Source: Minisyncoccota bacterium (GTDB lineage: Bacteria > Patescibacteriota > Minisyncoccia > Minisyncoccales > RBG-13-42-11). Taken from it: a DNA stretch of 64,000 nucleotides. The position numbers and the translations under genes were made by a program. The stretch spans positions 78,473-142,472 of the forward strand of contig JADHYE010000001.1 of the NCBI GenBank assembly GCA_016782605.1, read 5' to 3'. Within the stretch, counting starts at the first letter, position 1. Every line of letters begins with the position of its first letter. Under the pieces are notes generated by a model. It saw only the letters and a list, made by a program, of their open reading frames with translations, did not search any database and was not told the origin of the DNA. Of the stretch, positions 854 to 19,227 are shown piece by piece.

Positions 854-1039
854 TTACCAACTGCTTTTTTTAACTCCTGGTATTAATCCTTGATTGGCCA
901 TTTCCCTGAAACAAATCCTGCATAATCCGAATTTCCTCATATATGCCCTTTTCCTGCCGCACCTGAAACAGCGCCTGACTATCCGGCTTTTGTATTTTGG
1001 CTTTTTCTTTGATTTTTCTATTTGTGATTTTGTCGCCAT
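854..1039 (-). CDS. rpsZ: 30S ribosomal protein S14, type Z (zinc-binding)
   Basis: 61 aa with CFRCGRK...CRIC (Cys4) and a C-terminal W. Lies between L5 and S8. Confidence 0.95.
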
Positions 1040-1040
1040 A

Positions 1041-1175
1041 CCCCGTATATCATCTTCCAGTTACTTCGTAATGCGAAGTGAAAGAAGTTTGTTTTATTAT
1101 ATTAAACTCATTTCTTTGTTTTAAATATTGCATGGGATTATATATATTAAGCATTCTGGAAGTTGTATTACAGGG
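1041..1175. mobile_element. MITE-like element, copy A (135 bp)
   Basis: Left end is CCCCGTATATCATCTTCCAG and right end is CTGGAAGTTGTATTACAGGG. Flanked by the direct repeat CATA (1037-1040 and 1176-1179). The interior is AT-rich. Two more copies occur in this window. Confidence 0.8.
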
Positions 1176-1183
1176 CATATTTC

Positions 1184-4463: not shown

Positions 4464-4778
4464 TTATTTTTCAGGTGTTTCGGCTGCTTTTTCTGAAGCT
4501 TTTGATTCCAATTCTCTCTGCATCCTTCCGCCGTGCCTGCCGAACTTAGTGGTCGGAGAAAATTCGCCCAGCTTGTGGCCGACCATGTTTTCTGCTGCTT
4601 TAACTGTAATGAATTCCCTGCCATTATGGACGCCGAAAGTAAAACCGATCATTTCAGGAGTGATTGTTGACCTTCTTGACCAGGTTTTAATAATTTCCTT
4701 GCCCTCAGGTTTCAAATTCTTTATCTTTTTCAATAATTTTTCGTCCACAAAAGGACCTTTCTTAATTGATCTTGACAT
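4464..4778 (-). CDS. rpsS: 30S ribosomal protein S19
   Basis: [18 protein letters not shown]...GHKLGEF is a canonical S19 sequence. Confidence 0.95.
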
Positions 4779-4779
4779 A

Positions 4780-4911
4780 CCCTGTATATCAACATCCAGG
4801 CATTTTCAATGCGAAAACACTCTGAAGGTTGTCTTTATTTAATAATATATTCAACATAATAATTTTAATTAAGCTTTCAATACGAAGTATTCTGGATGTT
4901 GTATTACGGGG
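4780..4911. mobile_element. MITE-like element, copy B (132 bp)
   Basis: Left end is CCCTGTATATCAACATCCAG and right end is CTGGATGTTGTATTACGGGG. Flanked by CATA (4776-4779 and 4912-4915). The T-to-A change in the left arm is matched by the complementary change in the right arm. Confidence 0.8.
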
Positions 4912-4915
4912 CATA

Positions 4916-5695
4916 TTATTTCTTCTTGTGTTTTCTCCTTTGAATGATTAATTTGCTTGTCCATTTCTTTTTTCTTGTCCTAACTCCCATTGCTATCTTG
5001 CCCCAGGGAGTTTTGGCATGCTTCATACCGATTGAAGACCTCCCCTCTCCTCCGCCATGAGGGTGGTCGGGCGGATTCATGGCTGTCCCTCTGACTGTCG
5101 GCCTTATGCCTTTATGTCTCGCTCTTCCTGCCTTTCCCACTTTGATAAACTTGTGTTCAGGAAAAGAAACCTGTCCGATTGAAGCGCAACATTCAGCTAA
5201 AATTTTTCTTGTCTCAGTAGAAGGAAAAATTAAATGGGTATACTTTCCTTCCTGAGCAACAACCCTTGCTGAAGTTCCTGCCCCTTTTACCAGTTTTCCG
5301 CCCCTGCCAGGCTCCATTTCAATGTTATATACCTGCATTCCGACAGGAATGTTCTTCAATTTCATTCTGTTCCCTGTTTTTATCTCCGCTTTTTCAGAAC
5401 AAATCACGCTGTCTCCGACTTTCAACCCATGAGGGCAAATTCTATATCTTTTTTCTCCATTATCATATTGTAAAAGACAGATAAAAGAAGTTCTGTAAGG
5501 GTCATATTCAATGGCTAAAACTTTAGCCGGAGAATCCTGTCTTTCCTGGCCGAAATCAACGATTCTGTAAAGCCGCTTTGCTCCACCGCCCTTGTGCCTG
5601 ACAGTAATCCTGCCCCGAGAATCGCGGCCAGCCCTTCTTTTCAAGGATAAAAGCAGGTTTCTTTCCGGTTGCTTTTTTGACAATATCTTTTTCAT
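4916..5695 (-). CDS. rplB: 50S ribosomal protein L2
   Basis: 259 aa with GRDSRGRITVRHKGGG and PPDHPHGGGEGR. Confidence 0.95.
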   Translation of the reverse strand: MKKILSKKQPERNLLLSLKRRAGRDSRGRITVRHKGGGAKRLYRIVDFGQERQDSPAKVLAIEYDPYRTSFICLLQYDNGEKRYRICPHGLKVGDSVICSEKAEIKTGNRMKLKNIPVGMQVYNIEMEPGRGGKLVKGAGTSARVVAQEGKYTHLIFPSTETRKILAECCASIGQVSFPEHKFIKVGKAGRARHKGIRPTVRGTAMNPPDHPHGGGEGRSSIGMKHAKTPWGKIAMGVRTRKKKWTSKLIIQRRKHKKK

Positions 5696-6753: not shown

Positions 6754-7341
6754 TTATCCTTTAATTTCCAATAATCCTCCTGATGCTCCGGCAATCGCTC
6801 CCTTAACCGCCAATAAATTGTTCTCTTTATCAATTTTAACAACTTTCAAATTCTTGATGGTTTTCCTTTCTCCACCCATTCGGCCAGGCATCTTTCTGCC
6901 TTTGATTACCCTTTCTGGGAAAGAGGTTCCCGTAGAGCCCAAACTTCTCTGTTCATGTTTTGTGCCGTGGGTAGCCGGACGCCCGGAAAATCCCCACCTT
7001 TTCACTCCTCCCTGAAAACCCTTTCCTTTGGAAGTGCTGGAAACTTTAACTTTGTCCCCCTCTTCAAAAACAGAAACATTTATTTCATCTCCCTGTTTCA
7101 TCTCGCTCTTTTCATCAATCTTAAACTCTTTTAAATATCTGAATTCTTTTCCTTTTTCTGTTTTCTTAGGTTTCTTTTTTTTAACAAAGCCAACCTGAAC
7201 AGCCCAATATCTGTCTTTTTCATTCGTCTTTATTTGGGTGATATAGCAGGGACCGGCCTCAATCAGGGTGACCGGAATAACTTTTCCTTCTTCGTCGAAA
7301 ATCTGCGACATTCCCAGTTTTTTTCCTAAAATGAATTTCAT
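6754..7341 (-). CDS. rplC: 50S ribosomal protein L3
   Basis: MKFILGKKLGMSQIF... from the ATG at 7341. The track ORF starts at a TTG at 7356. Confidence 0.92.
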   Translation of the reverse strand: MKFILGKKLGMSQIFDEEGKVIPVTLIEAGPCYITQIKTNEKDRYWAVQVGFVKKKKPKKTEKGKEFRYLKEFKIDEKSEMKQGDEINVSVFEEGDKVKVSSTSKGKGFQGGVKRWGFSGRPATHGTKHEQRSLGSTGTSFPERVIKGRKMPGRMGGERKTIKNLKVVKIDKENNLLAVKGAIAGASGGLLEIKG

Positions 7342-19036: not shown

Positions 19037-19075
19037 ATTCCTGACAACTACTCTTAAAAGCTCGGCTTTTCCACA

Positions 19076-19218
19076 CCCCGTATATCAACTTCCAGAACCA
19101 AACTTTTATTCGCAGAACTAATTCTGAATTATTATTTTATATCTTTAATATCCCCCCCCAACTATATTATTTTATTACGTTTGGTTTGTTGCGAATAACT
19201 GGAAGTTGTATTACGGGA
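19076..19218. mobile_element. MITE-like element, copy C (143 bp)
   Basis: Left end is CCCCGTATATCAACTTCCAG and right end is CTGGAAGTTGTATTACGGGA. Flanked by CACA (19072-19075 and 19219-19222). Confidence 0.8.
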
Positions 19219-19227
19219 CACACCCGA

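Follow-up and report, generated by a model that had tools for sequence, protein, structure and literature searches.

Slx1 is a structure-selective nuclease, and its family includes YhbQ and YazA (PMC7017083). The protein carries a C-terminal zinc-finger domain and acts with Slx4 in DNA repair (PMC7017083). In the rRNA genes of bacteria of the candidate phyla radiation (CPR), GIY-YIG proteins occur in insertions that belong to neither the group I nor the group II introns, and many uncharacterised insertions shorter than 200 bp without an open reading frame (ORF) have been found there as well (PMC11270868). In this study, we analysed a 64,000-nt stretch of a Minisyncoccota genome (assembly GCA_016782605.1, contig JADHYE010000001.1, positions 78,473 to 142,472), hereafter the window, which holds three short elements named copies A, B and C. 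Statements about this genome refer to the 64-kb window only. The three copies have the structure of miniature transposable elements with inverted repeats (MITEs): they are short, carry no transposase of their own, and have inverted ends and a target duplication, which was confirmed by empty sites for A and B. We believe, with a probability of roughly 0.7, that they are ORF-less members of a very small mobile-element family spread across Patescibacteria, that a nuclease encoded by longer members would act on them in trans, and that re-initiation at the start codon would keep their host genes expressed.

Copies A (1041-1175), B (4780-4911) and C (19076-19218) are 132-143 bp long, and the host genes of all three are on the minus strand. 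Their ends are 20-nt imperfect inverted repeats with 17/20 complementarity. Both end 20-mers matched exactly at the six copy ends and at no other window site with up to three mismatches (chance expectation 0.00-0.01); with up to six mismatches, no convincing further site appeared across the window. On the coding strand, the first (upstream) end is called the R-type end and the second (downstream) the L-type end, and the layout is 5'-(TATG or TGTG)-CCCNGTAATACAACWTCCAG ... CTGGAWGWTGATATACNGGG-(TATG or TGTG). The flanking repeats are perfect 4-bp repeats in every case: CATA at 1037-1040 and 1176-1179 for copy A, CATA at 4776-4779 and 4912-4915 for copy B, and CACA at 19072-19075 and 19219-19222 for copy C, which read TATG, TATG and TGTG on the coding strand. 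An earlier note, made from the letters of the window, had given these coordinates, the end sequences and the inverted identity of 17/20, and all of them were reproduced exactly.

Copy A is placed between the rplE stop codon (1184-1186) and the rpsZ ATG (1037-1039), and copy B between the rplB stop codon (4916-4918) and the rpsS ATG (4776-4778). Two of the three copies are inside the ribosomal-protein operon. Copy C is located in the spacer between a ferredoxin-like ORF and nrdD, approximately 95-110 nt 5' of the nrdD start and off any start codon. Database records assign S19, L2 and S8 to Candidatus Pacebacteria/Paceibacterota, Ca. Nealsonbacteria RBG_13_38_11 being the closest relative with a name. 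The parts of the three copies and the two adjoining host genes are as follows.

1176-1179, minus strand: upstream duplication of copy A, TATG on the coding strand; captured ATG at 1178-1176, with the original rpsZ initiation context TAGGAAAT-ATG kept
1156-1175, minus strand: R-type end of copy A, coding strand CCCTGTAATACAACTTCCAG, a match to the 20-mer
1061-1155, minus strand: AT-rich interior of copy A, with the subterminal hairpin ACTTCG-CATTA-CGAAGT at 1063-1079
1041-1060, minus strand: L-type end of copy A, coding strand CTGGAAGATGATATACGGGG, with the invariant TGA at 1052-1050
1037-1040, minus strand: downstream duplication of copy A, including the rpsZ start codon at 1039-1037
1050-1178, minus strand: 42-codon ORF of copy A (MPCNTTSR...VTGR, then stop), from the captured ATG to the TGA of the L-type end, 10 nt 5' of the rpsZ ATG
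854-1039, minus strand: rpsZ (S14, 61 aa), the host gene directly 3' of copy A
4912-4915, minus strand: upstream duplication TATG of copy B; captured ATG at 4914-4912, after the rplB stop TAA (4918-4916) and one T
4892-4911, minus strand: R-type end of copy B, CCCCGTAATACAACATCCAG, a match to the 20-mer
4800-4891, minus strand: interior of copy B, with hairpin 1 AATAC-TTC-GTATT (4891-4879), AT-rich filler and hairpin 2 GCATT-GAA-AATGC (4812-4800)
4780-4799, minus strand: L-type end of copy B, CTGGATGTTGATATACAGGG, with TGA at 4791-4789
4776-4779, minus strand: downstream duplication of copy B, including the rpsS start codon at 4778-4776
4789-4914, minus strand: 41-codon ORF of copy B (MPRNTTSR...MPGC, then stop), from the captured ATG to the TGA of the L-type end, 10 nt 5' of the rpsS ATG
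4464-4778, minus strand: rpsS (S19, 104 aa), the host gene directly 3' of copy B
19072-19222, minus strand: copy C including both TGTG duplicates (19222-19219 and 19075-19072); its R-type end is at 19218-19199 and its L-type end at 19095-19076

Close relatives were compared to see the loci in their empty form. No database record was identical to the rpsZ protein, and the relatives were located through look-ups of S19 and L2. Seven contigs (L001-L007) with an identical S19 protein all read rplB-TAATATG-rpsS without an element, the empty site being GAAATAATATGTCAAGATC. One of the seven (L002) is also empty at the other locus, rplE-TAGGAAATATG-rpsZ, where it reads AAAAATAGGAAATATGGCGAC; this is exactly the empty site that had been predicted for rplE-rpsZ. 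The DNA identity of the empty-site relatives to the window is 93-97%. The blastn alignments break at 4912/4779 and at 1176/1040, and in both cases the two segments overlap by the same 4 nt, TATG. Because relatives of 95-97% DNA identity have empty sites at both ribosomal loci, we conclude that A and B were inserted recently and that TATG was duplicated in the process. In contigs of independent assemblies that are 99.99-100% identical to the window, the elements are contained or the contig stops at them. No empty site was found for copy C among the sequences available for comparison, which were only same-strain contigs with an identical ferredoxin.

Two proposals of the earlier note can be judged from these results. 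It took the 4-bp repeats as target-site duplications, and this holds: A and B have empty sites, and across the family described below the flanking repeats vary between elements yet match within each element, which indicates true target-site duplications rather than a conserved motif. It also named an outcome that would overturn its reading, namely that the conserved ends are a lineage-conserved stem without empty sites. Empty sites exist.

Related elements were searched for by pattern scans, one of species-representative genomes and one of metagenome contigs. The counts given for the family refer to the elements listed and are lower bounds; the genome scan demanded C or T at position 4, and the common CCCAG variant was missed there. 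At least 129 unique related elements were recovered, each of them pairing an R-type with an L-type end. Setting aside isolated matches expected by chance, the hosts were Saccharibacteria, Parcubacteria, Kerfeldbacteria, Niyogibacteria and other Patescibacteria metagenome-assembled genomes (MAGs), and the metagenomes were from groundwater and aquifers. A scan of the viral_contigs set for the R-type end gave 0 matches and thus no support for a phage vector. The elements fell into size classes of 63-84, 104-153, 194-243 and 306-315 bp.

Of the duplications, 99 were 4 bp long, 15 were 3 bp and 6 were 5 bp. TATG was the most frequent sequence (74), with ATG (10), CTTG (8), TAAA (7), CATG (3) and ATGA (3) behind it and single cases that include TGTG, AATG, TTTGA and CAAAG. 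The orientation was almost completely fixed: read with the R-type end first, there were 74 TATG against 1 CATA and 8 CTTG against 0 CAAG. The short elements, which are off start codons, have the same fixed orientation, so selection for translation is unlikely to be its sole cause. At 61 independent TATG insertion sites, no position beyond TATG was conserved. An ORF of 60 codons or more starts at the right-flank ATG in 49/62 mid-sized and 32/36 full-length elements, compared with 26% of random TATG sites. The earlier note placed copy A exactly on the rpsZ start codon and called such an insertion into a ribosomal-protein operon unusual. The position was right, with the duplication at 1037-1040 including the ATG at 1039-1037, and a start-codon site proved to be the rule for the family. 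A search for Shine-Dalgarno motifs 5' of the captured ATGs found few.

Two elements (L010:7361-7561 and L011:2365-2567, in the 463-kb contig CAYOXC010000001.1) were found in a MAG labelled 'uncultured Gammaproteobacteria'. Their variant end CCCCGCTATACAAC is also present in a Patescibacteria MAG (L063), and either the MAG is mislabelled or such elements exist beyond CPR.

The members of 306-315 bp enclose one ORF, which begins directly after the R-type end and encodes a GIY-YIG protein of approximately 100 aa; the same ends enclose such an ORF in 36 elements. That ORF shares its frame with the ATG in the upstream duplication, and this ATG, the 20 nt of the end and 1 further nt make up 8 codons. 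The nuclease frame stops at the TGA inside the L-type end, 10 nt 5' of the downstream host ATG. TGA is a stop codon in the window genome. The frame is open from the captured ATG to the TGA in 29/33 full-length copies. In a protein database search, more than 730 clusters of 100-102 aa were obtained, and nearly all of the 120 best matches start with M-P-[SR]-N-T-T-S and end with F-G-x-G-S, both of which are encoded by the inverted ends. Residue 9 of the nuclease is often V, not M; for many copies, the captured ATG is thus the only start codon available. At the population-fixed insertion that carries the nuclease P0005, the host gene begins exactly 10 nt past the nuclease stop. At this insertion (L113-L122, ~2501-2511), the HD-domain gene on the upstream side overlaps by 11 nt with the captured ATG, and its last codons are now read from the R-type end; such insertions can change the C-terminus of an upstream protein.

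The frame geometry was also observed in ORF-less copies. The only ORFs within the window copies are the 41- and 42-codon read-through frames of B and A, and the chance of such a frame being open to the TGA with shuffled interiors is approximately 4.5% for each (P ~0.045). In copy C, the ORF from the flanking GTG ends after 19 codons. Among 57 ORF-less copies with a captured ATG, 17 were open to the TGA compared with 1.6 expected for shuffled interiors.

The protein of full-length members matched Pfam GIY-YIG (PF01541) with E = 2.5e-18, and the catalytic positions (two Tyr, Gly, Arg, His and Glu) are conserved. The median ratio of nonsynonymous to synonymous substitutions (dN/dS) was 0.10 at a dS of ~1.7, the codons encoded by the ends being excluded. 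This indicates purifying selection on the nuclease. The ends are almost invariant. A profile search against PDB sequences gave UPF0213 (4e-9), then SLX1 (1e-3 to 0.3), and the UPF0213 proteins 1ZG2 and 1YWL are the solved structures nearest in sequence. With an AlphaFold model (predicted local distance difference test score 81), the top Foldseek match was 1ZG2, followed by at least six Slx1 chains (probability 1.0; 1.7-3.3 Å over approximately 72 residues); I-TevI and UvrC appeared only at E ~1-2. The profiles and the predicted model place the element protein in the Slx1/YhbQ (UPF0213) branch of GIY-YIG nucleases. It is a bare catalytic domain of approximately 100 aa and has no DNA-binding domain.

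The interiors of the three window copies had been called AT-rich and unrelated. All are AT-rich, and they are not simply unrelated. Copies A and B carry subterminal hairpins, and copy C, whose interior carries the motifs TTATTCGCA / TGCGAATAA and AAACCAAACG / CGTTTGGTT, belongs to a subfamily of 143-145 nt (10 members among those listed) and shares ~75% interior identity with copies from other metagenomes. This subfamily retains the CCAAACGC/GCGTTTGG motif, which in full-length copies corresponds to the D-A-K-R-R codons and to the stretch just before the L-type end. Because this motif of the full-length ORF is kept, copy C is, as judged from its sequence, an internal-deletion derivative of a full-length copy. 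The order in copy B is R-type end, hairpin 1, AT-rich filler of ~66 nt, hairpin 2 and L-type end, an architecture also present in short family members; its L-type end has a T-to-A change at stem position 15 with a matching change in the R-type end. Both ends of the interior of copy A resemble the entire interior of the 63-nt elements L176/L220 (AATGCTTA..GCATTACGAAGTAA), and copy A looks like this 63-nt type with ~72 nt within hairpin 1.

Several arrangements of elements were noted along with these. The genome UBA4787 has one intact copy and six or more ORF-less copies, and a composite of the form 137 nt-TATG-222 nt is present there at two loci of the contig that carries the intact 312-nt GIY-YIG copy. 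Head-to-tail arrays with a 4-nt repeat between units were also seen, one of at least four elements (141, 309, 141 and 141 nt) with TATG and one of two 68-nt elements with TAAA. The array and composite loci are L151 (whole contig, minus strand), L202:131-270, L040:820-1182 and L095:6038-6400. A larger element of L195 (metagenome contig Ga0315280_10014951), with its R-type end at 6794-6813, contains ~150-190 nt further in a micro-hairpin of 38 nt, CCCCGTATAGCTCCCTCCTAAAGGGTGATTATACGGGG, which is nested in the L-type end and has TTGA/TTGA flanks. Of the element ends, the micro-hairpin retains only the outermost ~9 nt, a hint at a mobile unit that is smaller still. A solo R-type end in L194 (1822-1841 and downstream, minus strand) is fused in frame to a membrane-protein gene (MPSNTTSSRNYTLALIVII...), and the element scar is now the N-terminus of the host protein.

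Within the window and its strain, three further features were seen. Copy C has a run of 8 C (a G run on the coding strand) at 19152-19159, in the middle of the element; it is absent in other subfamily members and could be slippage-prone. Sigma-70-like hexamer pairs are present on the minus strand in A (1096-1125, TTTAAA-18-TATAAT) and B (4853-4880, TTGAAA-16-TATGTT), facing rpsZ and rpsS, and on reading the copies of a 147-152-nt subfamily, a TATAAT-like stretch was seen in several. Promoter-like hexamers in the A/B region numbered 10 compared with 7.1 +/- 2.9 in shuffles, no excess, and they are a weak lead only. In L123 (5781-5947 and 9513-9848) and L124, which belong to the strain of the window, automatic annotation cuts rpsS down to 94 aa and does not call rpsZ at all. 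Gene callers are misled by the insertions, which are thus an annotation hazard for ribosomal-protein marker sets.

The R-type end CCCNGTAATACAACTTCCAG and the L-type end (the reverse complement of CCCNGTATATCAWCTTCCAG) can pair over 7 bp, a 3x3 mismatch and 10 bp. The mismatch (A.A, T.T, A.A) is invariant in 124 elements. Stem position 4 varies between C, A, G and T and covaries with its partner, being Watson-Crick in 114/124 elements, and the inner four stem pairs change jointly (CCAG/CTGG, CGAT/ATCG, CGTT/AACG). From the R-type end, the short elements continue with a 5-bp hairpin (TYC loop), AAAA and a 4-5-bp hairpin whose GNA loop is closed by C:G, and they finish with the L-type end. In an alignment of 15 short elements, 97.2% of the cells were paired and 9 pairs had changed on both sides, which 0/500 shuffles reached. 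In the folding check that had been proposed, the folds were more stable than shuffles (z = -3.4 to -5.9). The C-GNA-G loops of hairpin 2 belong to a known, extra-stable type of DNA minihairpin. Stem mismatches showed no strand bias (8 G.T on the sense strand vs 12 on the antisense strand), which indicates that both DNA strands fold equally well. The constraint looks like a DNA-level fold open to both strands, either a cruciform or a single-stranded T-shape, rather than one RNA.

We infer, as we do for all mechanistic steps past insertion with duplication, that the nuclease moves the elements and that termination and re-initiation preserve host-gene expression. The nuclease would be made from full-length copies via the initiation signals of the host gene itself. 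Supplied in trans to ORF-less copies, it would recognise their folded or cruciform ends and cut at the stem base. A staggered cut of 3-5 nt in the target, followed by host ligation or fill-in, would then give rise to the duplication, and the non-palindromic overhang would fix the orientation. After insertion, the upstream duplicated ATG with the host initiation context opens a frame through the R-type end (M-P-[RS]-N-T-T-S-) and, in a full-length copy, onward into the nuclease. In copies A and B, ribosomes ending rplE or rplB would initiate on the captured ATG, just as prior to the insertion, translate through the element, melt the stem, stop at the UGA and re-initiate 10 nt on at rpsZ or rpsS. 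Such translation across the element from rplE or rplB, with re-initiation on the ribosomal-protein gene, is plausible.

A further proposal assigns the mobilising activity to the Slx1/YhbQ-type nuclease of ~100 aa itself. On this view, units of 306-315 bp would transpose autonomously and represent a new enzymatic class of element: their own folded, T-shaped ends would be what is recognised, insertion would be directional at T-ATG, the host start codon would serve to express the nuclease, and a stop built into the end would hand translation back to the host gene. We hold this tentatively, at somewhat under even odds. If autonomous, these units would be, to our knowledge, the smallest transposable elements in cellular genomes.

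Several points weigh against these proposals. The earlier note called the elements non-autonomous, and this holds: no gene for the GIY-YIG protein of the family is present in the window, where neither a GIY-YIG homolog nor a full-length copy was found in the 64 kb. As far as we know, GIY-YIG enzymes act by hydrolysis of DNA and are not known for strand transfer, those characterised do not typically cut with a 4-nt stagger, and DNA transposition in prokaryotes is not known to be driven by this class. A premature stop is present 24-175 nt 5' of the host ATG in 40/57 ORF-less start-codon copies, so close stop-start coupling is not the general route to host-gene expression. Another route must exist for those copies, for example stem processing, scanning after termination or an internal promoter. 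As a Shine-Dalgarno arrangement, the GGGGU-AUG at the regenerated start is poor. Selection after insertion, rather than targeting, could explain the enrichment at start codons, and the invariance of the R-type end is partly due to ascertainment, the scan patterns having fixed this end and left the L-type end free.

The inverted ends and the 3-5-bp duplications are a classic signature of DDE transposases, and ends that start with CC together with 4-5-bp duplications recall IS1380. The copies could thus be ordinary MITEs moved in trans by a conventional 4-bp-duplicating transposase (IS1380-, IS5-, IS701- or ISH3-like), with the GIY-YIG ORF as a passenger or an unrelated inhabitant of the ends, and the lack of known strand transfer by GIY-YIG enzymes counts for this. 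We consider it unlikely. A search for an autonomous element with the same ends had been proposed, and what was found were the ORF-bearing elements with a GIY-YIG nuclease: among the matches listed (134 paired elements in ~240 loci), none is longer than 315 bp, the GIY-YIG ORF is the sole ORF enclosed, and these ends were not seen with any transposase. The unpaired ends with sufficient flanking sequence, four in number, were explained by truncation, a scar or nested insertion. The ends also encode the first 7-8 and the last residues of the GIY-YIG protein and its stop codon, this ORF is under strong purifying selection, and the fixed R/L asymmetry and target orientation are not typical of DDE MITEs. 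A free-standing homing-endonuclease gene spread by double-strand-break repair, with the ORF-less copies as decayed remnants, would account for the GIY-YIG catalytic domain and for the position between conserved genes, where the seg/mob genes of phage T4 sit too. It is very unlikely here: the 61 independent sites share just TATG, without a long recognition site or flanking homology, inverted ends and duplications are not products of homing, and the bare domain without a DNA-binding domain has its nearest folds in Slx1/UPF0213, not in I-TevI.

The folds that beat shuffles, the strong covariation in the stem and both hairpins, and the window copies all being co-oriented with transcription would suit selection for an RNA function. 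In that case, the stem with its internal loop and the two hairpins would form a structured RNA, such as a site processed by RNase III or a device for translation; the insertion would do no harm once this RNA is cut out or processed, and DNA mobility would be secondary. Correia elements of Neisseria are cut by RNase III within mRNAs. The GIY-YIG-encoding and short ORF-less non-intron insertions of CPR rRNA genes can also be counted here (PMC11270868). We regard this explanation as improbable. Rfam 15 covariance models gave no match on the elements at the gathering score or at E of 1-5 or less, the stem mismatches without strand bias fit a DNA-level constraint, the hairpin-2 loop is of the DNA minihairpin type, and the duplications and empty sites are left unexplained. 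An RNA-level role may coexist with mobility, and the strand-bias test gives it no support. Archaeal bulge-helix-bulge introns were dropped on sequence inspection, the mismatches being directly opposed and not staggered, and hammerhead-type ribozymes were dropped on the same inspection, the junction having no conserved cores. Practically no weight is given to a lineage-conserved intercistronic regulatory stem or an assembly artefact that is not mobile. The extreme conservation of the ends and the fixed positions in same-strain contigs speak for it; against it stand the empty sites in close relatives, which rule out a purely regulatory stem, the same elements at more than 100 unrelated loci with matching variable duplications, and the presence of the elements in independent assemblies.

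Apparently, the family is large and undescribed. No description of elements with terminal inverted repeats (TIRs) and target-site duplications that encode a GIY-YIG nuclease was found in the full-text literature, most subscription journals being outside its coverage. The short non-intron insertions in CPR rRNA genes might be the same element family (PMC11270868). What is new here is a MITE with start-codon targeting and a built-in stop. If our reading is true, a transposon fits into ~310 bp, with inverted ends that also serve as coding sequence, supply the stop codon and fold into the structure that is recognised. Such a transposon would explain how start codons in essential, tightly coupled ribosomal-protein genes of highly streamlined bacterial genomes are colonised, why small GIY-YIG 'excinuclease' genes are abundant in CPR genomes, and why CPR assemblies break at such sites. 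The nuclease and hairpin pair is small enough for direct testing as a DNA-insertion tool.

In comparison with known systems, the window copies do not have the features of DDE insertion sequence (IS) families, of IS200/IS605 and repetitive extragenic palindromes with their tyrosine transposases (REP/RAYT), of homing endonuclease genes (apart from the GIY-YIG domain in full-length relatives) or of any Rfam family. Correia elements are similar in their size of ~100-150 bp, inverted ends, short duplication, dispersed copies, lack of their own transposase and co-transcribed long hairpin. They differ in that they duplicate TA, have ends of ~26 bp and have no known ORF-bearing parent, whereas the elements described here have a duplication of 3-5 bp (TATG), start-codon sites, one orientation, a fixed 3-nt end mismatch and relatives that encode a GIY-YIG protein. 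Slx1, YhbQ and YazA (UPF0213) are closest in sequence and predicted fold (1ZG2, 1YWL and Slx1 nuclease domains), with the catalytic residues kept; unlike Slx1, the element protein, a putative nuclease, is a bare domain of ~100 aa whose termini are encoded by the element ends, and it is multi-copy and mobile. Free-standing GIY-YIG homing genes (T4 seg and relatives of I-TevI) are likewise selfish GIY-YIG genes between conserved host genes. They use a long cognate site and flanking homology and have no inverted ends or duplications, whereas here 61 sites have only 4 nt in common, the elements have both TIRs and duplications, the protein has no domain for DNA binding, and its fold is remote from that of I-TevI.

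Folded DNA ends are apparently conserved here as in IS200/IS605, REP/RAYT and the T-shaped ends of parvoviruses, the short members being a stem with two hairpins that form a three-way junction. IS200/IS605 and REP/RAYT differ in that they use HUH (Y1) nucleases with covalent intermediates, and IS200/IS605 inserts beside a tetranucleotide without duplication; here the sole ORF is GIY-YIG, and the 4-bp duplication is real as judged by the empty sites. Rickettsia palindromic elements and eukaryotic introner-type transposons are also small palindromic mobile elements that are tolerated in or near essential genes and keep the host gene expressible. The former are read as in-frame protein segments and the latter are spliced out, whereas the elements of this family combine the capture of a start codon with a stop 10 nt before the regenerated start.

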